DNA from: a virus
Lineage: Duplodnaviria; Caudoviricetes
Virus record (IMG/VR): IMGVR_UViG_3300037067_012889
Coordinates: 160,001 to 224,000 of that record
Reading direction: 5' to 3' (one strand)
DNA length: 64,000 nucleotides
The first letter of the stretch is position 1. Each line of letters opens with the position of its first letter. Of this stretch, positions 37,859-53,654 are shown one piece after another. The notes below the pieces were generated by a model, which was not told the DNA's origin, ran no database searches, and was given only the letters and a program-made list of their open reading frames with translations. A program made the position numbers and the translations under genes.

Positions 37859-38647
37859 TTACCAACCTCCACCGGCTCCACCGCCGCCAAAATCGCCACC
37901 ACCGCCTGAATAACTGTCGCTTCCTCCGCCACTACTGCCGCTGCTGCTGCTTCCACTACCAATGAAACTGCTACCGAAAGAATCGGAACTAATCGCAATT
38001 ATGACAATAACAATCACTATAATCACAACGATCACGATTATAGTGATGCCAAACCAAGTAGACCAAAAACTAGCAACTGCGGCACCGGCAACGACAGCTG
38101 TGCCAGCGCCGACAGCCCCTGGTACTACACGACCATGTATATTGGCGTCGATAGCTTCGATCGCTACTTTAATACCGGCATGAAAATCGCCAGCCTTGAA
38201 TTGTGGCTTCACCTGATCGGCAAGGATATGGCGGCACACAACATCGGTAAGCGTCCCTTCTAACCCACGCCCAACAGTTATCCAAGTCTTATGTTCTTTA
38301 ATAGCGGCGACAAACAACACCCCATTGTCTTTGTCTTTCTGTCCCAACTTCCATCTTTTGGCCGTCTCGATTGCGAATTGACTAATATCCTGTCCACCTA
38401 AAGTTGGTATAGTCAGGACAACAATTTGGTTGCCAGTTTCTTTCTCCTGCCTAAGAAGTTCATTGCTTAGGCTCTCAACTTGGCTCACCGACAACACTTT
38501 GGCATCGTCATTTATTGGACCACGTAATGTCGGCGTTGCAGCCGCACGTGCAGATTGCATCACCGGCATTAACAACATCGCAAGCATGCCGACAATTGCG
38601 ATTACGACGAGCAATTCAACTAATGTAAAACCGTTCGTGCGTTTCAT
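37859..38647 (-). CDS. TPM-domain membrane protein with a prepilin-type N-terminal methylation leader
   Basis: MKRTNGFTLVELLVVIAIVGML..QSARAAA; TPM motifs WKLGQKDKDNGVL and VGRGLEG; TM helix; Gly-rich tail. Confidence 0.88.
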   Translation of the reverse strand: MKRTNGFTLVELLVVIAIVGMLAMLLMPVMQSARAAATPTLRGPINDDAKVLSVSQVESLSNELLRQEKETGNQIVVLTIPTLGGQDISQFAIETAKRWKLGQKDKDNGVLFVAAIKEHKTWITVGRGLEGTLTDVVCRHILADQVKPQFKAGDFHAGIKVAIEAIDANIHGRVVPGAVGAGTAVVAGAAVASFWSTWFGITIIVIVVIIVIVIVIIAISSDSFGSSFIGSGSSSSGSSGGGSDSYSGGGGDFGGGGAGGGW

Positions 38648-38657
38648 TTAGTATCTC

Positions 38658-39263
38658 TCAGAATTCGACTTTTGGTGCAGTCTTCGCAGCTTCTGTTACT
38701 TCAAAAAGTTCTGCTCGTTTGAATCCGTGCACGTTAGCGACCATTTGACTGAACAGACCACCAACAGTAATGTTATATTCCTTCACAGCTTTATTATATC
38801 GGTGGCGAGCTTCATTAATACGATTTTCTGTACCTTCCAGCTGCGATTGAAGATCTAAGAAGTTCGTATTAGCTTTCAATTCAGGATATTGCTCCTGAAC
38901 TAGAAGTAGCCGTGACAGGGCCGATGACATACCGCCCTGCGCCTCTGCAAACTTTTTCATCTGTTCTGGGTCGGTCGTTGCGGCGTTAATATTTACCTGC
39001 CCGACCTTCGCACGTGCTTCGGTAACATCATTGAATACGTCATGCTCGTGTGTAGCATATCCCTTAACAGTGCTGACGAGGTTCGGTATCAGATCATACC
39101 TACGTTGAAGAGTAGATCCAATATCGGCCACCTTTTCCTGAACAGTATTGAATCCGGTATTGAGGCTACTATAAGTGCCCCACCACGACAACCCAATAAT
39201 AATGATGATGAGTAGTACGACGCCAACAAGACCCAATGCAACGTATAAACAACCCTTCATCAT
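38658..39263 (-). CDS. lemA: LemA family protein
   Basis: LQRRYDLIPNLVSTVKGYATHE; EQYPELKANTNFLDLQSQLEGTENRI. Confidence 0.95.
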   Translation of the reverse strand: MMKGCLYVALGLVGVVLLIIIIIGLSWWGTYSSLNTGFNTVQEKVADIGSTLQRRYDLIPNLVSTVKGYATHEHDVFNDVTEARAKVGQVNINAATTDPEQMKKFAEAQGGMSSALSRLLLVQEQYPELKANTNFLDLQSQLEGTENRINEARHRYNKAVKEYNITVGGLFSQMVANVHGFKRAELFEVTEAAKTAPKVEF

Positions 39264-39312: not shown

Positions 39313-39538
39313 CATGCAATATCTAGGAGCGAGCGATACTCTCTATTCCTGTTTTTGTTTACAGAAATATTCCTGTAGTCACCTGGGAACGAGCGGTACT
39401 CTCCATTGCAGAAAGGCGGATGGTCAAGATCGGGCTTCCTGTAGTCACCTGGGAACGAGCGGTACTCTCCATTGGAATGAGCTGTGCGAGCAATGGGCCA
39501 ACTCCTGTAGTCACCTGGGAACGAGCGGTACTCTCCAT
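39313..39538 (-). CRISPR. CRISPR array 1: 3 perfect 35-nt repeats, 1 degenerate terminal repeat, 3 spacers
   Basis: CCTGTAGTCACCTGGGAACGAGCGGTACTCTCCAT at 39372, 39438 and 39504 (period 66); degenerate copy 39313-39346; leader TACGCCAACGGGT on the right. Confidence 0.95.
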
Positions 39539-39583
39539 TACGCCAACGGGTTGACGGTCATAATAATACCACTAGTAAATCTG

Positions 39584-39922
39584 TCAGCTACATCGCACTC
39601 TACAATATGCCATGACTCTGTCATATATATAACATACGTCTGGTAAAAGCCAGATTGAATCGTCCCAAAATATCTGACCTTCTAGACCTTTCACGGTCTC
39701 TTCGACACATGAACAGGATACATATGTTACCTTCGATTCGCCAATAGTCAATGTGTTTCTATTCGAACGAATCGTAGGAATACCCATTTGGTCGAAAGAT
39801 CGCATATGCTGACTTAGCAGATCTTCGGCATATCGCTGGAAACAGGCGACCACTACGACATTCCGCTCTCCACGACGAACGGAGTCTATCACATCCTGGA
39901 TCAATTGTCGGCTGAGACCCAT
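39584..39922 (-). CDS. hypothetical protein within the CRISPR locus (112 aa)
   Basis: ATG-started ORF between arrays 2 and 1. Confidence 0.6.
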   Translation of the reverse strand: MGLSRQLIQDVIDSVRRGERNVVVVACFQRYAEDLLSQHMRSFDQMGIPTIRSNRNTLTIGESKVTYVSCSCVEETVKGLEGQIFWDDSIWLLPDVCYIYDRVMAYCRVRCS

Positions 39923-39939: not shown

Positions 39940-40473
39940 TCAGGCCGGTTGTGTTTCGGTCTCCAACAACGCTTCCAATTCGGCAATTTTCACGTTCAAC
40001 GCTTCGTTTTCTTCTTCGAGTTGTTTAATACGCGCCATCAGTTGGTCGATGATCGCCCTTTGGCGCACCTTCTCACGACGAGCTTGCGTAAGCTGGTCCT
40101 CGATTTGCCGTTGCTTCGGGCTACGTTTGGCCGATGGTGCGAGCCTGTTGCCCGAGATCATCTTCTGCCTCATCTTCCAAATCTTGCCATCAGCCCATTG
40201 CTCCTTACGTGGATAATATTCAAGGAGCTTTTCAAGTTCAAGGAAACTCAAACAGAGATCATCAACGTAGTCGTCCAGCAGGTCTGCTAACTTAAGGTCG
40301 TCAAGAACGTCGTTGTCGGCACGAAACTCCTCGTCGTGATAGACCCTGCTGAGCAGGACGATACGCTTATAAGCGTTAGCGCCGCTCCTCTCCCTCAATT
40401 TCCTCGCTTCCAGCAAGTTTGTCTTGTAGAGCTTGCTTGAGTTTTGTGGGGTCTGATCTGTCGAGTTCATCAA
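39940..40473 (-). CDS. helical protein with a C-terminal coiled coil, within the CRISPR locus
   Basis: GAGGAG RBS; heptad pattern LMARIKQLEEENEALNVKIAELE. Confidence 0.75.
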   Translation of the reverse strand: MMNSTDQTPQNSSKLYKTNLLEARKLRERSGANAYKRIVLLSRVYHDEEFRADNDVLDDLKLADLLDDYVDDLCLSFLELEKLLEYYPRKEQWADGKIWKMRQKMISGNRLAPSAKRSPKQRQIEDQLTQARREKVRQRAIIDQLMARIKQLEEENEALNVKIAELEALLETETQPA

Positions 40474-40609
40474 TAGTTCTCCTCATTCGTTTGTGGAAGT
40501 GTGCCAATGAAGCACAGTCCTTATTGCAATACTTACGACCCTCTTGCAATGGCATCTTGCAGATTGGACAGAAGAAACGAACAATATCAGCCTGTTTCGT
40601 AATTTCCAT
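40376..40609 (-). CDS. possible small Zn-finger protein (CPIC..KYCNKDC)
   Basis: Cys motif present, but it overlaps the next ORF by about 100 nt. Confidence 0.35.
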   Translation of the reverse strand: MEITKQADIVRFFCPICKMPLQEGRKYCNKDCASLAHFHKRMRRTIDELDRSDPTKLKQALQDKLAGSEEIEGEERR

Positions 40610-40619
40610 CCTATCCTGC

Positions 40620-40859
40620 CCTGCAGCCACCTAGAAACGATCACACTCTCTAAATACTGAGTTATCCAGAGAGCAGCAACCTGTAGTCACCTGGGAACGA
40701 GCGGTACTCTCCATCAACTTCGCACGCGGCTAGCACGCGTCCAGCCTGTAGTCACCTGGGAACGAGCGGTACTCTCCATCTGTCCCAACGCATCAGACAC
40801 CAACGCATCAGACAGACAACGCCGCCTGTAGTCACCTGGGAACGAGCGGTACTCTCCAT
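40620..40859 (-). CRISPR. CRISPR array 2: 3 perfect repeats, 1 degenerate repeat, 3 spacers
   Basis: Repeats at 40680, 40745 and 40825; degenerate copy 40620-40653; same leader as array 1. Confidence 0.95.
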
Positions 40860-40893
40860 TACGCCAACGGGTATTAAAGCATGCCACTAGTAA

Positions 40894-40972
40894 AAAGGTG
40901 ACTCTGGCGAGGGCTAACACGGTACGTATTGCCCGCAGCTATTCTCGCCTTCGAGACGTACAGGACGCCTCT
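40894..40972 (-). ncRNA. tracrRNA-like element, copy 1
   Basis: 79-nt element identical in 4 copies; bipartite complementarity to the repeat 3' end. Confidence 0.85.
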
Positions 40973-40985
40973 AAATTGATTCAGT

Positions 40986-41276
40986 CTATTTCGACTGGTC
41001 CTCTTCAATCAGGTTCTCACGGATTTTCACGGCTTCGGCAGTGATATTCCGCAGCAGCATGTCCGCAATCGGGTCCGTAGTCCTGGTACACGCCAGGTGG
41101 CTTGTAATTTCATCCATGAAAATTACCATCGTCATTGCTTCCGGGGTGACGAGACAGTTCCCACCAATTTCCAATTCAAAATTATCGAGATGTGCATGAC
41201 TTGCGGCGTCCAGGTGAACACCACCACGGCAACCATCTGATGCTTTGCCACGCTTATGCAGATAATAGTTACGCAT
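40986..41276 (-). CDS. hypothetical protein (96 aa) directly downstream of the second dCas12f
   Basis: GGAG RBS before ATG 41276. Confidence 0.6.
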   Translation of the reverse strand: MRNYYLHKRGKASDGCRGGVHLDAASHAHLDNFELEIGGNCLVTPEAMTMVIFMDEITSHLACTRTTDPIADMLLRNITAEAVKIRENLIEEDQSK

Positions 41277-41307
41277 TAGTAAATCTCCGGGCGTCAATAT
41301 AGTACAA

Positions 41308-42513
41308 TTATCCCGCTTTTTTCTTGAACTTACGTGCGCCAATCACGTGGATTATGACGTCGATATCGGCTTTATTGCAAGCCTTCTGAATCAACGAACC
41401 CATCTGCTGCCAATCCCAATGAGTCGATTCAATATTGCATCCCTGGACACGACCGACCTTCTCCATATGTCGATTGTTACATAGATCGCCAACTGGTTGA
41501 AATACCACAAGCCGACCCGCACCAGCCATACTCAAACGCCTGACCATCTCTTCGGCGAGCCTGTGATTCCATGTTTTGACGAAATCACGCCATCGACGCG
41601 TCAACTTCTCACGACGAGTAATTGCGATGTTCCGCTTTTTCTTAGATCCTTTATAAAGACGTTGGATTGTCAAGGATCGGCGGGTGTGCTTGATGTCGTT
41701 ACCAAATCGCAATCTGGTGCTTGTCCTACCATTGATGCGGAACAGGATTGGGCGTGAAAATCCACCAGACAAGAAAGCCGTCTTGTTCTTGTCGATGGGC
41801 AATTTCACCTTTGGAATGGAATGACAGATCTTGGCATACCATTTACCATCGCGTTCGAATAAATCGACACCCTTGATACTCCATTCGCCGTCCGCAATCC
41901 TCCAAAACATGTTGCGAATAGAATGGAGCTTGTATGACTTAGTCTTGATCTTGAAGATCATGACGGTGTCATCGTCGAATCGCACTTGCAACTTCCAATC
42001 ATCATCGTCAGTTGCCGGAACGACGATATGACAATCGCTAGTGCAGAACGGGATTTTGCCGCGCTTAGCAGATTGCGGCAATTCGCCAAGACCAGCCAGA
42101 GCGATCATCCAGCGAGGATAGGCTGACTTGATGCCGGACTTCTTAATGAGATCCTTCATCGCTTTTTTGACAGCCAGCTGAATCTGCTTCATACCAAACT
42201 CAGCATGTGTCTCGGCGATAATGGCCCGCAGCCGTTCATCCATCTCAGGGCTGCAAGGATCAACAGAACATCGAATGCGGGGACTAACACGCTTATCAGG
42301 ATGATACAACCATTTCTTGTCGTTCTCCATCCATTCTCGAACGATAAGATGATTACCAGCTTCGTAGTGTAGCCGCAACCAAGCCGCTGCAAAATCATTA
42401 GTAACCTGCTGGATTTTGTCGGCGATGGTAGAGAGACGCTTTTTCTCTACTGCGAAATCTCCATCACTTCCAACTAGATCAACCCTCTTGTTCTTGATAA
42501 CTCTGTACTGCAC
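41308..42513 (-). CDS. Cas12f1-like protein B, RuvC-inactivated and C-terminally truncated (401 aa)
   Basis: GKWYAKIC; RuvC-I site TAFLSGG (no Asp); RuvC-II site LVVFQP (no Glu); WDWQQMGSLIQKACNKADIDV; no Zn finger or RuvC-III; GAGGAG RBS. Confidence 0.85.
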   Translation of the reverse strand: MQYRVIKNKRVDLVGSDGDFAVEKKRLSTIADKIQQVTNDFAAAWLRLHYEAGNHLIVREWMENDKKWLYHPDKRVSPRIRCSVDPCSPEMDERLRAIIAETHAEFGMKQIQLAVKKAMKDLIKKSGIKSAYPRWMIALAGLGELPQSAKRGKIPFCTSDCHIVVPATDDDDWKLQVRFDDDTVMIFKIKTKSYKLHSIRNMFWRIADGEWSIKGVDLFERDGKWYAKICHSIPKVKLPIDKNKTAFLSGGFSRPILFRINGRTSTRLRFGNDIKHTRRSLTIQRLYKGSKKKRNIAITRREKLTRRWRDFVKTWNHRLAEEMVRRLSMAGAGRLVVFQPVGDLCNNRHMEKVGRVQGCNIESTHWDWQQMGSLIQKACNKADIDVIIHVIGARKFKKKAG

Positions 42514-42530
42514 GATTTCTCCTCAAAGGA

Positions 42531-42609
42531 AAAGGTGACTCTGGCGAGGGCTAACACGGTACGTATTGCCCGCAGCTATTCTCGCCTTCGAGACGTACAG
42601 GACGCCTCT
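42531..42609 (-). ncRNA. tracrRNA-like element, copy 2 (between the two effector genes)
   Basis: Identical 79-nt element. Confidence 0.85.
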
Positions 42610-42620
42610 GGATTGATTCA

Positions 42621-43925
42621 TCATGCTGCTTTCTTCTTACGCAATTTGCTCTTGCGTGATTCACCAATCTTCCTAACAGTGACCTTGATGCCGACGACCT
42701 TGCAAGCGTGCTGCAATAACAACTGCATTTGGTACCAATCCCAACCGGTCGATTCGGTGAACCCCTTCATCTTCCCGATATTAGTCAGGTATCTTGATTC
42801 TCGCCATTTGCCAGCTGGCTGATATACTACAACGTGGCCGATTTTGGATTTGACACATCGCTTAACGACGTCTGCGGCCCAACAGCTATTGGTCGTCTTG
42901 ACCATATCACGCCACGTGTCCCTGATCTTGTCGCGCCACTGGATTGGCTTCCTGCCATGTCCTTTCCTGGCACTGGAAGCATATTTGTATGATTCGTTTT
43001 TACCGAATCGTTGTTGCGTCAGCGATTTGCGCACACGTTCGATATGCCTACTGTCCATCAAACCCGTCAAAGTCCTACCATTGATTCGCATCATCATCGA
43101 ATTATGGTAGCCAGCGGTAACGAAAGCCGTCTTCGTGGCGTCCAATTGTGACTTCTCGATATTCGTAATCTTGTAACAGATATGCGCGTACCAACGGCCA
43201 TCACGAAGAACTAACGAAGAAGTGTTGAAGATGAATTCACCAGATGCAATCTTCAATAGAGCTTCACGAATGGTGGCCAAATTACGGCCACCGGTTCGCA
43301 TTTTAAAGACCATTGGACGCAGACGAGTACCGAGTCCTCTTTCAAAGCGTACTTCCAGTTTCCACGGGTCTTTAATCGTTTTCGGAACGATGATGCTGCT
43401 GTTCGAAGTGTAAAACGGAATGGGTGCAGGTTTATGTGCTTGTGGGAATTCGCCCAAGCCGGAAAGAATCGTCATCCATCTCTTATAGGCCGACTTCGAC
43501 GACGGCATTGAAGAGATCGTCTTACCAACGTTTTGCAAAATGATGCCGATTGGTTTCGTTCCAAGATTAGCATGCTCTCTTGTGAGAAGTCTGTAGAGCT
43601 GCCTACTCATCGCTGGATCGCATGAATTAACAGGGCACTTAATGCGTGGCGGTGCATCCTTTTTACCCTTATAGGCTTTCGCCCACTCTTTATCCTTCTC
43701 GATCCAATTGCGAATCACCAGATGATGCCCGGCTTGCTGATGCAAACATAGCCAGTGGTTGCAGTAGTCGTTCGCCATCTGCTGCATTTGGACGGCCAGC
43801 GACAAGAGGCGTTTTTTCTCGTCTACGAAATCACCATCACTGCCAGTCAGTTCGATCCTGATGATTTTCGTGATACCATCAGGCTTCTTCTTACGTGGCT
43901 TCTTCTCTACTTTTTCTTCGCTCAT
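42621..43925 (-). CDS. Cas12f1-like protein A, RuvC-inactivated and C-terminally truncated (434 aa)
   Basis: GRWYAHICY; TAFVTAG; Cas12f1-type RKGHGRK; IGHVVVYQP; WDWYQMQLLLQHACKVVGIKV; ends without Zn finger or RuvC-III. Confidence 0.88.
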   Translation of the reverse strand: MSEEKVEKKPRKKKPDGITKIIRIELTGSDGDFVDEKKRLLSLAVQMQQMANDYCNHWLCLHQQAGHHLVIRNWIEKDKEWAKAYKGKKDAPPRIKCPVNSCDPAMSRQLYRLLTREHANLGTKPIGIILQNVGKTISSMPSSKSAYKRWMTILSGLGEFPQAHKPAPIPFYTSNSSIIVPKTIKDPWKLEVRFERGLGTRLRPMVFKMRTGGRNLATIREALLKIASGEFIFNTSSLVLRDGRWYAHICYKITNIEKSQLDATKTAFVTAGYHNSMMMRINGRTLTGLMDSRHIERVRKSLTQQRFGKNESYKYASSARKGHGRKPIQWRDKIRDTWRDMVKTTNSCWAADVVKRCVKSKIGHVVVYQPAGKWRESRYLTNIGKMKGFTESTGWDWYQMQLLLQHACKVVGIKVTVRKIGESRKSKLRKKKAA

Positions 43926-43998
43926 TTGATCCTCTTAATGATTAGAGGGCCTACATGGATTCACGCCTGTAATCATTGGAAGTTAACAATTCCAAAAT

Positions 43999-44077
43999 AA
44001 AGGTGACTCTGGCGAGGGCTAACACGGTACGTATTGCCCGCAGCTATTCTCGCCTTCGAGACGTACAGGACGCCTCT
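43999..44077 (-). ncRNA. tracrRNA-like element, copy 3
   Basis: Identical 79-nt element; has its own promoter upstream. Confidence 0.85.
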
Positions 44078-44104
44078 GGATTGAGTCTAATTGTTCCATA
44101 AAAG

Positions 44105-44133
44105 GTTGTAGCATGAAGAATAGAAATCATTAA
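44105..44133 (-). promoter_or_regulatory. promoter TTAATG-N17(..TCATGC)-TACAAC for tracr copy 3 and the dCas12f genes
   Basis: Member of the recurring motif family; 17-nt spacing. Confidence 0.55.
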
Positions 44134-44562
44134 CCTAGGAACGGCACCCTCCATTCTCTTGGTTCGATGTGTGGCTCGATTGGTTCCTATAGTCACCTTG
44201 GAACAAACGGTACTCTCCATTACACCTGGGAACGAGCGGTACTCTCCATTCACACACCACTTTACCGTTGAGTGGTGTCCTGCAGTCACCTGGGAACGAG
44301 TGGTACTCTCCATTATGGGAAATCCCACTTTACGGTTTACCTGTAGTCACCTGGGAACGAGCGGTACTCTCATTGGTTTTGCGGCAAACCTCTCTTCCCT
44401 TCTCCTGTAGTCACCTGGGAACGAGTGGTACTCTCCATCGATGGATGAAGAATTCCAGCAACCTGTAGTCACCTGGGAACGAACGGTAAACCCCATTCCA
44501 AAAGCCTGTATCGAGCAAACGGTCGCTCCTGTAGTCACCTGGGAACGAACGGTAAACCCCAT
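44132..44562 (-). CRISPR. CRISPR array 3: 8 polymorphic or partial repeats, 6 spacers of 23-31 nt
   Basis: Repeats at about 44132 (degenerate), 44186, 44223 (partial), 44279, 44340, 44404, 44462 and 44528; same leader. Confidence 0.95.
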
Positions 44563-44595
44563 TACGCCAACGGGTATTAAAGGATATCACTAATA

Positions 44596-44674
44596 AAAGG
44601 TGACTCTGGCGAGGGCTAACACGGTACGTATTGCCCGCAGCTATTCTCGCCTTCGAGACGTACAGGACGCCTCT
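44596..44674 (-). ncRNA. tracrRNA-like element, copy 4
   Basis: Identical 79-nt element upstream of the array 3 leader. Confidence 0.85.
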
Positions 44675-44688
44675 GGATTGAGTCTAAT

Positions 44689-45684
44689 TCACTTTGCACG
44701 TGGCCGCTTCACGCAGCTATTGGGCGAAAGTTGTTTGATACCTTCATTGGAACGCCATTTATTCCAAGCCATGACGCATCCGCGATACATCTCTTCTTGT
44801 GACACCGGCTTCCTATCACTCGACTTCTTGCCGTCGATGGTGCTCCTCTCCAAATAGTTCTTCAAAACCAAACGAGGGTCGCTCTTGTCGAAAAAGCCGA
44901 CGCCGGTCGTAACGGAAATCCAAAATTCACGTGCAGCCGATTGGCATTTTGTAAACGTCTCAAACATAGCGGCGACGACAGGGGCTCGCCAAATATGCTT
45001 TGTGATTTTGCTCTTGTTGGTCTTCAAGAACGTCAAGATCTGCTTCGCCACAATGTGGTATTCGGCATCCATGATATGGCACCGAGAATCAATGTCGAGT
45101 AAATAATGCCTATTCTGCACTTCCCACTTCCAAAGCGAGAATCCGTTGACGGCCACGTTTAACATGCCGCGATCGAACTCCTCATATCCTTCACGCCCGA
45201 GTAAAATAGAGTTGACGACCGTCGTGTTGGAACGCGAATAGTTGCGATCAAACGTGCCGTACAAAATACGGACATCGTCAATTGTCTTACAAGTGTAACG
45301 ATACATCCGAACCTTGTAAATCTGCTGGATGTCGTCCGGAAGAGTAATAAACGCCCATGCCGTGTGCTGCCCGTTGATACGATACTTCGCTTTGTCCTCC
45401 TGGCAATGCGCCGTAGCCAAGATGACTTGTTCTGGGCGAAACAACCCACGTACCATACAACGCTGTAAGTATGCGACGTGGGCATCACGAATCGACCGTT
45501 CGGCGACAAATTCCTTCATCTCCAAGAGTTCAGTACAAAGCTCCTTCGTCAATGTGACGATCTCTTCCTTACCGAGCCTGATTGATTCACCCATTTCTTG
45601 AACATCGGGGCCAGCAGCCTGCCCAGGCTGCATAAGGTGATCAAGATCGACGTTGGACGTTGTGAAGCTAGACTGATCGGACAT
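44689..45684 (-). CDS. ParB/Srx-like (DGQHR-type) domain protein
   Basis: RINGQHT variant of DGQHR; C-terminal DPRLVL..AWNKW; AGGAG RBS. Confidence 0.6.
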   Translation of the reverse strand: MSDQSSFTTSNVDLDHLMQPGQAAGPDVQEMGESIRLGKEEIVTLTKELCTELLEMKEFVAERSIRDAHVAYLQRCMVRGLFRPEQVILATAHCQEDKAKYRINGQHTAWAFITLPDDIQQIYKVRMYRYTCKTIDDVRILYGTFDRNYSRSNTTVVNSILLGREGYEEFDRGMLNVAVNGFSLWKWEVQNRHYLLDIDSRCHIMDAEYHIVAKQILTFLKTNKSKITKHIWRAPVVAAMFETFTKCQSAAREFWISVTTGVGFFDKSDPRLVLKNYLERSTIDGKKSSDRKPVSQEEMYRGCVMAWNKWRSNEGIKQLSPNSCVKRPRAK

Positions 45685-45727
45685 AGCGAAACTCCTATCT
45701 GTGCAAGACAATAAGTCGGAATATCAC

Positions 45728-45756
45728 GTTATAGCACGATGCCAAATAATTATTAA
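45728..45756 (-). promoter_or_regulatory. promoter TTAATA-N17(..TCGTGC)-TATAAC at the head of the CRISPR locus
   Basis: Member of the recurring motif family. Confidence 0.7.
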
Positions 45757-46740: not shown

Positions 46741-46774
46741 GATATGCCCTTATATTGCTAGAACGGGATACCAA

Positions 46775-46803
46775 ATTATAGCACGAAAGACATTAATATT
46801 TAA
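46775..46803 (-). promoter_or_regulatory. promoter TTAAAT-N17(..TCGTGC)-TATAAT
   Basis: Member of the recurring motif family. Confidence 0.7.
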
Positions 46804-47516: not shown

Positions 47517-50500
47517 TTAAGCAGTCTTTTGTGTCGCTTGTACTAGAGATAATTTACAGCATCCGGCGAGCATTGGTGTTTGTGATGTTGGGCGTTTGGT
47601 AATCTGACCCTCTTGGAAGAAGTCGATCCGCAATCCTTCCGATTCAGCGAATCCTTTCAACGATTGCAGCCATTTCTTATATACACCCTTTTCAATCGGC
47701 TGCCAAGAAGTATGTGTGTAGCCCTCCATAAAATTCCACGAGAATAATACGTATCCTGATTTCTTGGCAGCAGCGATGGCAAGATAACAAAGTTCCTGCC
47801 AATATTCTGTTCTCGATTCAACCATACCCATGGTTGCATCATAGCTAATGACACGTGGATTCTTCCATCGATTCCACAGCTTGTGAATGGTCAAGAATTC
47901 ACGATCAGAATGGGCACAAGCTCCTTTTGGTGCTTTATCGATTGCATCTTTATCAACATTGTGGTAAGTGTTTGGACCGAGTTCAACACCGGCGTCGACA
48001 AGATGCTTATGCTCATACCATTCTTTACCGCCAAGAGTCCAAAATTCACAATCAGAAAAAGAGGTAAGGCCGTAATATCTCAGAGCCTTGACTAGGAACT
48101 CACGATACTCATTACGGCCAGCATATTTACCGCGTTTAGCTTTCTTATATGATCCATGGATAAACCAATCAGGCCGTAGTGAACGAATCTGCTTATCAAA
48201 TTCAGGATCGTAACACCTACTATTCTTATTAGTGTAATCACTAAGCCTGCTTGCGTAACGCGCTTCGTCAGCGTCATCGCAATGCTGCTTAGGTTTGCAT
48301 TCATCTTTACCCGCCAACCGCAGCAATATGCTCTTCATAACCATTGCTGTGTCCTCGAACCAATCGGGACGTAGTGAGCGAATCTGCTTATCAAATTCAG
48401 GATCGTAACAACAACTATTCTTATTAGTATATCTAAATATTGCCCTGCCAAATTTATTACTTGGTTTTGGCTCCCATCTATTAGCTAGTCTCAACAATTC
48501 AGCCTTCCTAATCCTTGCTGTGTTCTCAAACCAGTCAGGACGTAGAGAACGAATCTGCTTATCAAATTCAGGATCATAAGATCCGCTGTTCTTGTTGATA
48601 TAGGCACTCAATTTGCCAGCAAGCAATCTTTCCTCACGATTTATTGAACTGCCCTTTGGTCTCCGTTCTTCTTTTCTCCTTGCCAATCCTAACAGTTTGA
48701 TTTTAGTGGCTGCTGCTGTATCCTCAAACCAATCTGGACGCAAGGCACGAATTTGCCTGTCGAATTTATAATCATAACTCGTAGACTTATTAGTATAGCT
48801 ATACAAAACCCGGCCTAATTGTATTTCGTCGGCATCATCGCTTGTGGTTCGTGGCCTGGTAGCCCCTTTTTCAGCCAGCATAACAAGATGTTTTTTCTTT
48901 TCAACAGAAGTTCTTTCAAACCAATCTGGCCGCAACTGTCGAATCTTACCATCGAAGACCGAATCATAATTACAAACATTTGCTTTACAGGTGTAACCTT
49001 GTAACGCAGAAGAAAGCTTAGAATCGGTAGTACGTGTTGGTCTTGGTGCCCCGCTAGCAGCAAGAGATAATAACACTTCCTTCTTTTCGGCTACCACATT
49101 AAACCAGTCTGGCCGCAGTTGGTGGATTTCAATATCAAAAGCATGATCATAAGTTCCGCGATTTTTATTCAAGTAGCAGTTTAATGCTGCTGATAACTGT
49201 CTCTCTCGTAAATTTTTAGAGTTACCACGCGGCCTTCTTTGGCCATGTTTTGCAAGCGCCAACAATTCTGATTTCTTTTGGGCTGTTTTTTCAAACCAAT
49301 CTGGTCGCAGAGTTCTGATAGATCGATCAAAAGCAGAATCATAGCATGAACTCCTCTTGCTTGTATAGCTTGATAATGATCGACCCAAGCGCCTATTATT
49401 TTCATCTTTAGTGTGCATCGTCGGTCGTTTTGAGTTTGGTACTCTCGCTAACGCTATTAAATCGTCTTTGTTCTTTTGAACCGAGTCTTCAAACCAATCT
49501 GATCTAAGTCTTCGTATTTCAGTATCGAAAATCACATCATAATTCTTTTTCTTATTAGTGTATTCGCCGAGCCTACCAGCAAGTCGTTTCTCTTCATGGT
49601 CTACAGCATCTCTATTTGGTCTTTTTCCTCCGCTCTTCGCTAGTTCTATCAACTTCCTTTTGTTCTCTCTCGCCGAATTCGCATTAAAGCGAATCAAGAT
49701 CCTTTCAATCTCGTCAAAATCATCTAGCCCGTTGATGATTCCAAAGTAATCGGTGATGCCGATTACTTTCAGTTTACTGATAGCTTCTTTGACCTCTGGA
49801 TCATTCATGAACTCTTTGAACGATAGCTTGCTAAGCCGTTGGTCGCGTTTGCGGATGATTTCTTCTAACGCTACACGATCGTTTTTGTCGATGACGTCAT
49901 ATTGCATCAACAAGCTTATAGCTAAAATTGGAGTTATGGCAACGCCGTGCTTGGCACATTGCTTACAGAGCATTTCAATCAACTCATTAGCAGACGCACC
50001 GGCGGCGGACTCTTGCAGAATTCGCTGTAAAATTTCGTTGTTCTGCAGCGAATTAATTTGCAACCTGAATTCGTCTCTTTCCTTATTTATTGCAACTCGA
50101 CGACGCTGCGGCAAAGTCAACATAAATGTATCGGTGAAGTCAAGGCCGCTACAGATCGCCTTAATCCTGATTGCGATTTGCAGGTTGGCATTCTTGACCA
50201 CATCCTGGTCTTCATCATCGAGGCTTACCTCAAAGATAACGACTCTTGAAAGATTTGGCGACAGATGCTTCGGGTTCTTCTTGTGGCGTAACGCACGCCC
50301 AACACACCGTTGGATAAATCGTTGCAGAGAACTGGTGAGACGCGGATTAAATGTTTGAGCACATTCAACCCAGTCCATACCTTCGTCAAATAACTTGATA
50401 GCTATGACAACATCATAATCTCTCGGAGAATCTATAATAGCATCAAGCTTAGCTTTGCGCAGATGCTTGTGGTTTGAAATAAGTGTCTTACCGTCATCAG

Positions 50501-51461
50501 ACCCAAAGTTGAGAATCCGAACACCTTTACATTTACTGAGCAGGAGCTTCTGCAAGTCGAGTGCTTGCTTGGCACCATCAACGTACATGATAGTCGGCAA
50601 AGGATGTTTTTTGTATTCATCGATATATGCCTTCAATAATTCGGGATAATCCATGGCCCCCATGAGGCTCGGTTTATTTGATATATCTTCAGTCTCAGCG
50701 AGACGGTCGAAGTCAGATTGATTAACAGCACGATAGAATCGAAGGAATACTCCGAAGTCGGGGCAACATCCATCATGATAATGCTCCTTCAAAAGCCGTC
50801 GAAATCGGCTAAACTCCTCAGATGTTGGCTGGCCACCATCGCTACGAAAGTCTGTGGCTGTGAATGCGTGAACTTCGGAGCATCTATCAATACATTTCCT
50901 CAGGATTGAACCTAATAGATTCTCGTCCTTCATATCGCTGTGATGAACTTCGTCGACGAGCAAAACCACATCTGACATATCGATGGTTTCATCATCCAAA
51001 GCCAAATCAAATGCCTTATAACTAGAAACGCGAACCGTGCCACCTGGACCATTCAGAAATCGTTTCATCGACGCAGATTTCTGTATCTGGCTCTCTTTAA
51101 CACTTTCATACGACAAGGTATATGTATTTATTATCTTATTCTTGTCTTTTTCAACAGCACACCAATCGCCATCCTTGGTATATTTAGTGAAATTGTGATT
51201 GATTCCCAGTTGCGGTGTGATGACGATAACTTTCTTATGCCGTCTGACAAAAGCAGCATAAGCAAGCATCACGTTGGTTTTGCCGCTGCCGGTTGGAGAT
51301 TCAACCAGCGTAAGACGATTCTGCTTCATATGGCCGATCATGCCACATTGATATCGCCGCAGAATTATAGGTGATTGTCCCATCTTCTCAGCGAGAACGA
51401 TGGATTTGGGTGCTACTTTACCAGCAAGGACGCCGTTTCGAATAGTAATAGTTGAATTCAT
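47517..51461 (-). CDS. SF2 helicase with 8 LRPDWF (helicase-associated-like) repeats and an unassigned C-terminal domain (1314 aa)
   Basis: SPTGSGKT, LVDEVHH, TAT, LFDEGMD and QRCVGRALR motifs; 8 repeats of about 60-65 aa. Confidence 0.88.
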   Translation of the reverse strand: MNSTITIRNGVLAGKVAPKSIVLAEKMGQSPIILRRYQCGMIGHMKQNRLTLVESPTGSGKTNVMLAYAAFVRRHKKVIVITPQLGINHNFTKYTKDGDWCAVEKDKNKIINTYTLSYESVKESQIQKSASMKRFLNGPGGTVRVSSYKAFDLALDDETIDMSDVVLLVDEVHHSDMKDENLLGSILRKCIDRCSEVHAFTATDFRSDGGQPTSEEFSRFRRLLKEHYHDGCCPDFGVFLRFYRAVNQSDFDRLAETEDISNKPSLMGAMDYPELLKAYIDEYKKHPLPTIMYVDGAKQALDLQKLLLSKCKGVRILNFGSDDGKTLISNHKHLRKAKLDAIIDSPRDYDVVIAIKLFDEGMDWVECAQTFNPRLTSSLQRFIQRCVGRALRHKKNPKHLSPNLSRVVIFEVSLDDEDQDVVKNANLQIAIRIKAICSGLDFTDTFMLTLPQRRRVAINKERDEFRLQINSLQNNEILQRILQESAAGASANELIEMLCKQCAKHGVAITPILAISLLMQYDVIDKNDRVALEEIIRKRDQRLSKLSFKEFMNDPEVKEAISKLKVIGITDYFGIINGLDDFDEIERILIRFNANSARENKRKLIELAKSGGKRPNRDAVDHEEKRLAGRLGEYTNKKKNYDVIFDTEIRRLRSDWFEDSVQKNKDDLIALARVPNSKRPTMHTKDENNRRLGRSLSSYTSKRSSCYDSAFDRSIRTLRPDWFEKTAQKKSELLALAKHGQRRPRGNSKNLRERQLSAALNCYLNKNRGTYDHAFDIEIHQLRPDWFNVVAEKKEVLLSLAASGAPRPTRTTDSKLSSALQGYTCKANVCNYDSVFDGKIRQLRPDWFERTSVEKKKHLVMLAEKGATRPRTTSDDADEIQLGRVLYSYTNKSTSYDYKFDRQIRALRPDWFEDTAAATKIKLLGLARRKEERRPKGSSINREERLLAGKLSAYINKNSGSYDPEFDKQIRSLRPDWFENTARIRKAELLRLANRWEPKPSNKFGRAIFRYTNKNSCCYDPEFDKQIRSLRPDWFEDTAMVMKSILLRLAGKDECKPKQHCDDADEARYASRLSDYTNKNSRCYDPEFDKQIRSLRPDWFIHGSYKKAKRGKYAGRNEYREFLVKALRYYGLTSFSDCEFWTLGGKEWYEHKHLVDAGVELGPNTYHNVDKDAIDKAPKGACAHSDREFLTIHKLWNRWKNPRVISYDATMGMVESRTEYWQELCYLAIAAAKKSGYVLFSWNFMEGYTHTSWQPIEKGVYKKWLQSLKGFAESEGLRIDFFQEGQITKRPTSQTPMLAGCCKLSLVQATQKTA

Positions 51462-51466
51462 AGTTT

Positions 51467-51495
51467 GTTATAGCACGAAAACAGGGAATTATTAA
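51467..51495 (-). promoter_or_regulatory. promoter TTAATA-N17(..TCGTGC)-TATAAC, leaderless (ATG 5 nt downstream)
   Basis: Member of the recurring motif family. Confidence 0.7.
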
Positions 51496-51510
51496 CTCAG
51501 ATATTCTAGT

Positions 51511-53001
51511 TCAGTCATTCTTAAACCAATCTGGACGCAGAGCACGAATCTTCGCATCAAAATCTGCGTCGTACGTTTTGCAGCTTTTGTTTGTGTATCT
51601 GCGCAACGTATAATATAAAGCATGCATTGCGGTCGGTTTCGCTTCTCCGTTTTTAGCTATCTCTAGAAGACTTTGTTTCTTTATAATTGTATTATCAAAC
51701 CAATCAGGCCGCAGCTTAGATATCTCCGCATGAAATTCCGGGTCATAACAATTACGGCCTGATTTCTTGCAAGTGTATCTAGTAAGTGCTGCACCCAATT
51801 TATCAGTCGGTCTTATGGCTCCGCTTTTGGCTAATTTTGTCAGCTTTCGTTTGGTTTGGCGTATCGTCCCACATGCTACCCTAAACCAATCGGGGCGAAG
51901 GTTATATATTTCTGCAACAAACTCAGAGTCACTGTGGGTTTTTAAATCTTCAGCTAAACGCCCAGCCAAACTCCGCATATGTGGGTCTTTTGACCTGACA
52001 TGTGGCCTGTCTTTCCCATTTTTAGCCATTTCTAGCAATTCTGATCTTCTAACTTCAGGCAGCAGGCTTTTTGGAAACCAATCTGGACGTAGCTCTTTTA
52101 TTGCTGCAGAAAATTCTGGGTCAAAATAATAGCCTTTGTGGATGAAGTTGTTTAACCATCTTGAAAGTGAAAATTCGCCTTCAAATCTTTCACTCCTGTT
52201 CTTACATAGCTCACGCGGCCTATCGGCACCATCAGTAGCAAGCTTTAGTAATTGCTGCTTGTAAATGTTGATACGATCAAACCACCCTGGACGCATTTCG
52301 CGAATCTTAGCGTTGAATTCTGGATCGAAAACGCCGCTATTTTCATTAGTATATCTCTGCAATGCCGCCCCCAATGCAATCTTGCAGTTCGGCTTCTCTT
52401 CTTGCTCTAGTTGTGCTAATTCAAACAACAATCGCTTATTTCTGTCTGATCGATGCTCCAGCCAATCGGGATGTAAAGCACGCATTTGGGCATCAAACTC
52501 AGCATCATAATCATTACTATTTTTATTAGTATAGTTATATAGAGCGGATGCCAATCTCAATTCATCGGACGCATTTTTGCTGGATGAAGGACGTCTCGAC
52601 ATCGATAACAACGTGCTTTTGATTTCCTCTCCCGAAGTTTTAGGTTTGGTAGGAAACCAGTCTGGTCTCAAAGCACGAATTTCATCATCGAATTCAAGTT
52701 GGCAATATCTGCTGCTGCGGTTTGAAGTATATCTTCCCAACGCCTGGCCAAGTCTTGTCTTCTTTGTTGGTTTAGGTGCTCCACTTTTAGCTATTTGTAT
52801 CAACAATCTAGTATTTTCCGCGACAGAATCATAGAACCAGTCGGGTTGCAATCTACGAATCTCTGCGTCAAATTCAGCATCATAAGACAAACCAGGAGTA
52901 GTATATCTTCGCAATGCCGCCGCAAGCTCATACTCCTCAGATCCTCTTCTTGAGAGAGTAAGACGAGGCTTTCTGACCGGCAGATATTCAGATTCAGCCA
53001 T
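51511..53001 (-). CDS. all-repeat protein with 8 LRPDWF repeats (496 aa)
   Basis: Eight YD.EFD..IR.LRPDWF-type units. Confidence 0.85.
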   Translation of the reverse strand: MAESEYLPVRKPRLTLSRRGSEEYELAAALRRYTTPGLSYDAEFDAEIRRLQPDWFYDSVAENTRLLIQIAKSGAPKPTKKTRLGQALGRYTSNRSSRYCQLEFDDEIRALRPDWFPTKPKTSGEEIKSTLLSMSRRPSSSKNASDELRLASALYNYTNKNSNDYDAEFDAQMRALHPDWLEHRSDRNKRLLFELAQLEQEEKPNCKIALGAALQRYTNENSGVFDPEFNAKIREMRPGWFDRINIYKQQLLKLATDGADRPRELCKNRSERFEGEFSLSRWLNNFIHKGYYFDPEFSAAIKELRPDWFPKSLLPEVRRSELLEMAKNGKDRPHVRSKDPHMRSLAGRLAEDLKTHSDSEFVAEIYNLRPDWFRVACGTIRQTKRKLTKLAKSGAIRPTDKLGAALTRYTCKKSGRNCYDPEFHAEISKLRPDWFDNTIIKKQSLLEIAKNGEAKPTAMHALYYTLRRYTNKSCKTYDADFDAKIRALRPDWFKND

Positions 53002-53654
53002 TAGTTAAACCAATCTGGGCGTAGTGCACGAATCTTCGCATCGAAATCTGCGTCATATGTCTTGCGTGATTTGTTCGTATAATTGATCAAAGCACGACCA
53101 AGACGCTGCTCTTCCATCGCAGCACCATAAATCTCCTCAGCATTAATTGCTTCTTCGAGACCATTTGTCCGTATTGGATTCTTTTGATACTTAAGCCACG
53201 CATTGCTATTTGGACGTGGCGCACCGCTTTCAGCCAACTTTAACAACTCTTCTTTGGTCATTGCGGTGCTTGGTAAAACTGCGGGCAATAACGCACCATC
53301 GGCATCAAACCAATCTGGACGAAGAGTACGAAGTTCTTTGTGAAAATCGGCATCGTAACTATTGGTACAACAATAGCGTTTCAATGCCAGCCCTATGCCT
53401 TCTTTCTTACTTGGCCTCTCAGCACCGCTTTCAGCCAGCTCTAGTAGCCGCCGCTTCTTTTGATCCGGTGTCTCTGGTCTTTCTGCCCCACTTTCGGCCA
53501 ATTCTAACAACCGCCGTTTGTTCTCGATATCGGGTTTGCTGGTTTCGATTGGCTCGACCGTGACCTTTAAGCCACTCTTTTCAAGCTTCCTGAGCAAATC
53601 CTTCTGATAGCTAAATAATTCGAACTTTTTCTCGGCCACGTTGATATCTCCCAT
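53001..53654 (-). CDS. protein with 2 LRPDWF repeats and a duplicated KRRLLELAESGAERP
   Basis: Same repeat family; stop/start overlap with the next gene; may start at GTG 53639. Confidence 0.8.
   Translation of the reverse strand: MGDINVAEKKFELFSYQKDLLRKLEKSGLKVTVEPIETSKPDIENKRRLLELAESGAERPETPDQKKRRLLELAESGAERPSKKEGIGLALKRYCCTNSYDADFHKELRTLRPDWFDADGALLPAVLPSTAMTKEELLKLAESGAPRPNSNAWLKYQKNPIRTNGLEEAINAEEIYGAAMEEQRLGRALINYTNKSRKTYDADFDAKIRALRPDWFN

Follow-up and report, generated by a model that had tools for sequence, protein, structure and literature searches.

Cas12f effectors of the described kind work as asymmetric dimers, and in the solved structures the two subunits do different things. 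Subunit 1 recognises the PAM, and its RuvC hairpin enters the RNA core, whereas subunit 2 binds from the outside and caps the PAM-distal duplex, with the tip of its hairpin unresolved (PMC12255294; PMC8053092; bioRxiv 2023.07.03.547593). In SpCas12f1, the hairpin tip of subunit 1 lies in the core of the complex, whereas that of subunit 2 is unresolved and points away (PMC12255294). The PAM residues of the second subunit face solvent or the RNA backbone (bioRxiv 2023.07.03.547593; PMC8053092), and in AsCas12f1 the residues N151-K154 make PAM-backbone contacts in subunit A only (bioRxiv 2023.07.03.547593). The Cas12f structures in these papers are all homodimers from one gene; because both subunits are products of that gene, mutations hit both at once. 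Dead Cas12f proteins have already been published, and what appears to be new in the phage locus described here is a Cas12f of two genes. An incomplete search of the literature found no report of such a heterodimeric Cas12f.

The phage locus and its guide RNAs

The window, i.e., the whole stretch of 64,000 nucleotides that was analysed (positions 160,001 to 224,000 of IMG/VR record IMGVR_UViG_3300037067_012889), is part of a 363,885-bp virus record, the 364-kb contig of a jumbo phage. Gene A (42621..43925, minus strand) encodes a dead Cas12f of 434 aa that is the predicted primary protomer, and gene B (41308..42513, minus strand) encodes a dead Cas12f of 401 aa that is the predicted secondary protomer. 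Both reading frames are intact, as an earlier note on this DNA had recorded, and gene B has a GTG start with the ribosome-binding site GAGGAG. The span set out in that note, 41308-43925, does contain A and B but leaves outside it the tracrRNAs, arrays and two conserved accessory genes of the system. No third Cas12f copy was found in the 363,885-bp record. Contigs from an independent assembly (run X1, possibly the source sample) cover both genes at even depth, which makes an assembly artefact unlikely.

Copies of the tracrRNA are found on the minus strand upstream of A (44001..44076), between A and B, beginning right after the stop codon of A (42533..42608), upstream of array 1 (44598..44673) and upstream of array 2 (40896..40971). 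The copy before A is followed by a decayed 36-nt repeat that abuts it (43966-44001). Array 1 (44186..44563, minus strand) holds seven 36-nt repeats, several of them degenerate, with spacers of 22-30 nt; array 2 (40620..40860, minus strand) holds three repeats and a degenerate terminal repeat; and array 3 (39372..39539, minus strand), also of three repeats, has the same leader end as arrays 1 and 2 and is without a tracrRNA copy. The tracrRNA core measures about 76 nt, and because the cores before A and before B are identical, the two proteins face one scaffold. Across related loci, 7 of the 19 base pairs in the tracrRNA stems show two-sided changes (0 of 500 shuffles). The tracrRNA carries two anti-repeats, a loop hexamer and a 3ʹ octamer, that base-pair with the final 13 nt of the repeat; in L008, L009, L006 and L012, the 3ʹ anti-repeat co-varies with the repeat. 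This pairing matches the pseudoknot and the repeat:anti-repeat stems described for Cas12f1 guides. An Rfam search gave no match, a scan for promoters and terminators stayed at chance level, and cas1 was not found in the phage.

Several observations concern rearranged guide elements. Remote mini-arrays with a leader and without an effector occur in this phage outside the window (G000, 137404-137483), where the leader end is that of arrays 1 to 3, and in a relative (G003, near 123950-124050). Sporadic natural fusions of tracrRNA and repeat (L001:9498-9625 and L005:1-75) run from the anti-repeat through a short loop into half a repeat and a spacer-like stretch; these would yield a single guide and parallel a step proposed for sigmaE-linked dCas12f. 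The L001 spacer was also found joined to a tracrRNA in run X1. In L006 (9400-10850) and in the arrays of L001 and L003, two repeat variants are mixed, with many shortened spacers and partial repeats. In run X3, one contig joins window position 40892 to 44595 across tracrRNA copies, and this join may mark a variant in which A, B and array 1 are missing, or no more than a leader that looks similar.

Two conserved ORFs on the minus strand are taken as putative accessory genes of the dead Cas12f family. One (40376..40630) encodes 77-84 aa with a four-cysteine zinc-finger-like motif and overlaps the next gene, and the other (39940..40470) encodes 176 aa with a helical N-terminal domain and a C-terminal coiled coil. 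Both also stand directly after the array, in constant relative frame, in L001, L002, L006, L008, L009, L011, L012 and L014. The zinc-finger ORF has a possible GTG start inside the degenerate terminal repeat, in the window as in L002. In 9 of 9 loci, the stretch for its C-terminal half also covers the ribosome-binding site and the beginning of the coiled-coil gene, with the same frame offset. For the 176-aa protein, family and fold searches gave the coiled coil only, and Atlas leads such as DUF3102 scored below 0.9.

The CRISPR parts are interspersed with three ORFs of no known family (44689-45684, 40986-41342 and 39584-39922), which had no match in the related contigs examined. Two of the three end where a tracrRNA copy starts, which suggests insertion by recombination at repeated elements. 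An intergenic motif that reads TCGTGCTATAA on the minus strand is repeated at 45717-45756, 46764-46803 and 51456-51495; it resembles an extended -10 promoter, and motifs like it are found ahead of tracrRNA copies in L001, L003 and L008. A 1314-aa protein (47517-51461) combines helicase-like motifs with roughly eight internal repeats, each 57-66 residues long, and the adjoining region (about 51500-53540) encodes the same repeats. LemA and a TPM-domain protein with a prepilin-type N-methylation motif are encoded at 37859-39263; they are also present in two related jumbo-phage contigs, distant from the CRISPR loci there. The methylation motif of the TPM protein hints at a host that is presumably Planctomycetota-like.

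Two diverged paralogues in a nuclease-dead family

A and B align end to end, with 167/406 identities in BLASTP (41%; E 4e-103), and the shared motifs singled out in the earlier note all fall inside this alignment. The KGHGR motif, part of a longer motif that had been assigned to A only, is indeed present in A and absent from B. Both proteins match AsCas12f1 and SpCas12f1 in sequence searches, and the family profile matches AsCas12f1 at E 1e-40. Moreover, the AlphaFold model of B (pLDDT 90) has full-length AsCas12f1 as its best Foldseek match (E 4e-17). Pfam gave no match above the cut-off for A or B. An assignment to the TnpB of IS605/IS607 was rejected: NF040570 scored 23.6 bits against a cut-off of 100, and the locus has arrays and a tracrRNA, not an omega-RNA at the 3ʹ end of a gene.

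The two proteins also share their losses, as had been noticed before, in that the same RuvC positions are replaced and both C-termini end early. In the alignment, the RuvC-I Asp (D225 of AsCas12f1) is replaced by T270 in A and by Ser in B, the RuvC-II Glu (E324 of AsCas12f1) by Y368 in A and by Phe in B, and both proteins end upstream of the zinc finger and RuvC-III. The effector formed by A and B is probably an RNA-guided DNA binder that does not cut. A profile search returned 235 clusters at E 1e-30 or better. The retrieved loci are mostly viral contigs, and most of them have one effector gene together with a tracrRNA-like element and an array. Among 170 aligned relatives, the Glu at the second position is found in nine and the RuvC-I Asp is kept in none; because no member has this first Asp, the inactivation of RuvC is old. 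The proposal that inactivation came before the duplication is thus borne out and extended to a wider family, whose single-copy members are all dead. No close relatives were found in isolate phages or plasmids, and the family may equal an unnamed or V-U branch. Its size, 235 clusters, suggests that regulation by dead CRISPR effectors is found in many phages.

A and B lie side by side in the window, in L001, in L003/L004 and in L008/L016, and the orthologues are 50-79% (A) and 52-74% (B) identical to the proteins of the window. All eight contigs of at least 15 kb that have A or B have both, although in four of the eight the pairing is indirect, with A-clade and B-clade proteins matched only by the equal size of their contigs (41105, 15910, 68068 and 167790). 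The A protein P0008, from an 8-kb contig, has no matched B, although the sequencing run that gave it also contains a B-clade protein. Few habitats are represented among the pairs, some of which share samples. In the tree, the A and B clades (100/100 each) are sisters (99/98) with long stems, nested among single-effector relatives; an alternative that places B beside a single-copy clade was not rejected (p-AU 0.07). Pairwise identities within A and within B correlate (Mantel rho 0.81, p 0.001). An exception is the 68-kb contig, where a divergent A is paired with a B that closely resembles that of L003, so the pairing is not strictly co-evolved. Both genes are under purifying selection (dN/dS 0.08-0.09). 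A pseudogene was ruled out by the dN/dS of 0.09, and a recent duplication by the 41% identity and the deep clades.

Complementary losses and a probable division of subunit roles

The two genes have kept different elements of the protomer. A keeps Y111, the G122-G127 helix start, the WED loop and the tip of the RuvC hairpin (S312-R325), whereas B keeps R269, D273, F311 and W315, has a shortened hairpin tip and WED loop and has lost a conserved Tyr. The hairpin segment measures 16-26 residues in all complete B orthologues compared with 33-34 in A and the single-copy proteins. All complete B proteins have lost 7-17 residues of the tip, including the KGHG motif, and among 170 family members such a gap is found only in B and one other protein. 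Similarly, the WED segment measures 18-20 residues in all B compared with 24-28, a loss of 4-7 residues, and the shortened loop aligns with N151-K154 of AsCas12f1; the alignment is good around both mappings. Among nine A proteins, Y111, T123 and G127 do not change, whereas the matching positions vary in B. At position 111, Tyr is also found in the nearest single-copy proteins, and R, H, D, T or N in B. This Tyr, matched by eye to the PAM tyrosine Y76, is probably a PAM-reading residue. The register of the PAM helix was set by eye and agrees with the boundary of the SpCas12f1 match, whereas HMMER places this part about nine residues differently on AsCas12f1, with low confidence, so the evidence from Y111 is weaker than that from the two shortened segments. 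H248 and Y398 correspond to N204 and Y343, which contact the seed and the target strand; most A proteins retain these two residues, and nearly all B proteins have lost them. As judged from these losses, it is very likely that B is unable to serve as a primary subunit.

These observations bear on the earlier suggestion that the paralogues read different PAMs. If so, A and B would be independent homodimers that use the same guides and together reach a wider range of targets, and each gene does have a tracrRNA copy of its own. B has the full Cas12f fold in its predicted model and is kept by purifying selection, and 7 of 9 B orthologues carry Gln at the position of G127. A new PAM should, however, give conserved readers, and four of the five presumed PAM positions vary, being conserved in at most four of nine B orthologues. 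Furthermore, B has neither the hairpin tip nor the whole of the PAM-backbone loop, and it is never found without A on a long contig. The two-PAM explanation is therefore disfavoured and, in our view, quite improbable.

Losses are also reciprocal. Thirty-one ancestral sites are kept only in A and 19 only in B, and the two kinds of sites are clustered in blocks (runs test, p 0.006). A has relaxed a block of sites other than those lost in B, and the A clade is variable at the B-only sites (entropy 1.34 compared with a baseline of 0.89). Of the 19 B-only sites, 12 fall either on the RuvC loop that follows the capping residues or on the second helix of the hairpin, and one block lies next to the loop with which subunit 2 caps the PAM-distal duplex. 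The sites relaxed in A may matter for subunit 2, but perhaps not for it alone: eight of them are on the second helix of the hairpin, and in AsCas12f1 this helix touches DNA in subunit 1. The blocks could also stem from old recombination.

A self-sufficient A homodimer would have no need for such a relaxed ancestral block, or for the long stem branch of A. This counts against an explanation in which A works alone and B is a regulator that tunes the system during infection, acting as a dominant-negative subunit or as a sink for RNA and so titrating out either the tracrRNA or A. B does fit that part in being without the primary-subunit elements and yet keeping the dimer Trp and the scaffold-facing surfaces, and in relatives it has a separate promoter-like motif and tracrRNA copy. 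In the window, however, the tracrRNA and B directly follow the stop codon of A, which suggests co-expression, and a purely regulatory B is unlikely. B might instead have left the effector complex for a new role, for instance in chaperoning RNA or in providing the accessory proteins with a platform, and co-occur with A by linkage only. Its stem branch is the longest (0.52), and several of its residues are newly fixed, but it retains ancestral residues that A has lost, and its REC dimer region is nearer to the single-copy proteins than is that of A (0.59 vs 0.51). Such a departure is very improbable.

The probable arrangement is an A-B heterodimer in which A would read the PAM and B would be the secondary subunit. 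The earlier idea that the protomer roles are split between the genes has comparative support in the complementary losses, whereas its 'obligate' part is weaker and a prediction from sequence. Whether the heterodimer is strictly obligate, with A alone inactive, is close to an even call that leans slightly against. In one structure of AsCas12f1, the C-terminal half of subunit B is disordered, and A may thus be able to fill the second position as well. More tentatively, and somewhat doubtfully, neither A nor B would be active alone within a large, apparently uncharacterised family of phage dead Cas12f, and the zinc-finger and coiled-coil proteins would give an output beyond simple roadblocking.

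The A-B heterodimer would have arisen from a single dead Cas12f gene that gave both subunits of an asymmetric dimer on one tracrRNA:crRNA. In this jumbo-phage lineage, the unit of tracrRNA and gene was duplicated in tandem, and the duplicates would then have divided the two subunit roles, a subfunctionalisation of the homodimer. The result would be a type V-F-like system, encoded by a phage and lacking cas1, with an effector that binds DNA but does not cleave it. As the primary subunit, A would read the PAM, hold the seed duplex and insert its RuvC hairpin in the RNA core; as the secondary subunit, B would dimerise via REC and bind the scaffold and the PAM-distal duplex. Because there is no nuclease, a block of transcription or replication is the likely output, and the complex would most likely impose it at sites in the host or in rival elements named by the spacers. 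The zinc-finger and coiled-coil proteins would perhaps help A and B in this block and may alter the output. Such a block has been proposed for array-linked dCas12f (PMC13472631), and silencing of transcription has been shown for some Cas12m. Spacer targets were not found in the phage's own contig or related contigs, nor, with five spacer seeds, in viral or metagenome contigs, and 401 genomes from the phylum of G006 gave matches at chance level only.

A natural split, if true, marks the surfaces that each subunit needs and would permit separate engineering of the two. It would also equip a compact CRISPRi scaffold, whose tracrRNA core is about 76 nt long, with an AND gate made of two genes. Additionally, it would be a clean transition from homomer to heteromer, with living single-gene relatives (L002 and L009) as controls.

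Comparison with known systems

The dCas12f-sigmaE activators of Bacteroidetes (PMC13472631; structure in PMC12259091) are likewise nuclease-dead and C-terminally truncated, and they form an asymmetric dimer on one guide, as is presumed here. The match to the dCas12f-sigmaE structure 9n9c is weaker (E 2e-17). As described in PMC13472631, these systems use a single guide without a tracrRNA, are mostly without arrays, lie beside rpoE and are homodimers. The phage locus, unlike these, has arrays and a separate tracrRNA, and no rpoE-type sigma70 region 2 (PF04542) was matched in the 364-kb contig or in three related phage contigs, whereas the control matched in 10 of 14 genomes. A further likeness is to an rpoE-less, CRISPR-associated dCas12f cluster, in which a dead Cas12f lies beside arrays and is a proposed repressor (PMC13472631, Extended Data Fig. 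1a,b). The comparison is by description only; the example given is a Chitinophagaceae genome, and the passages on it mention neither a phage nor a pair of paralogues nor accessory genes.

The inactive branches V-U24, V-U43 and V-U44, which are CRISPR-linked Cas12 proteins whose active sites are altered, are also alike by description only (PMC10691335). In that paper, V-U40-43 are near Cas12f1 and V-U24 has an HTH partner, and its text makes no mention of 'heterodimer' or 'paralog'. Cas12m and TldR resemble the phage system in RNA-guided binding without cleavage that silences transcription, which here is predicted, and in the fold search Cas12f1 comes out ahead of both. Cas12m is a monomer of larger size that lacks a tracrRNA, and TldR is derived from TnpB and uses an omega-RNA.

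The closest likeness is to AsCas12f1 and SpCas12f1 (type V-F1), which give the best match in sequence and fold and agree in size and, for A, in the KGHGR hairpin motif. They share a tracrRNA with two anti-repeats that pair with the 3ʹ end of the repeat, and the architecture of an asymmetric dimer is presumed for the phage system. Unlike AsCas12f1 and SpCas12f1, the phage proteins are without the catalytic residues, zinc finger and RuvC-III, and their system is phage-borne, without cas1, with a short tracrRNA core and two conserved accessory genes. It also has two genes in place of one, and the sequence evidence points to these two genes sharing what the asymmetric homodimer of a single gene does in Cas12f1.
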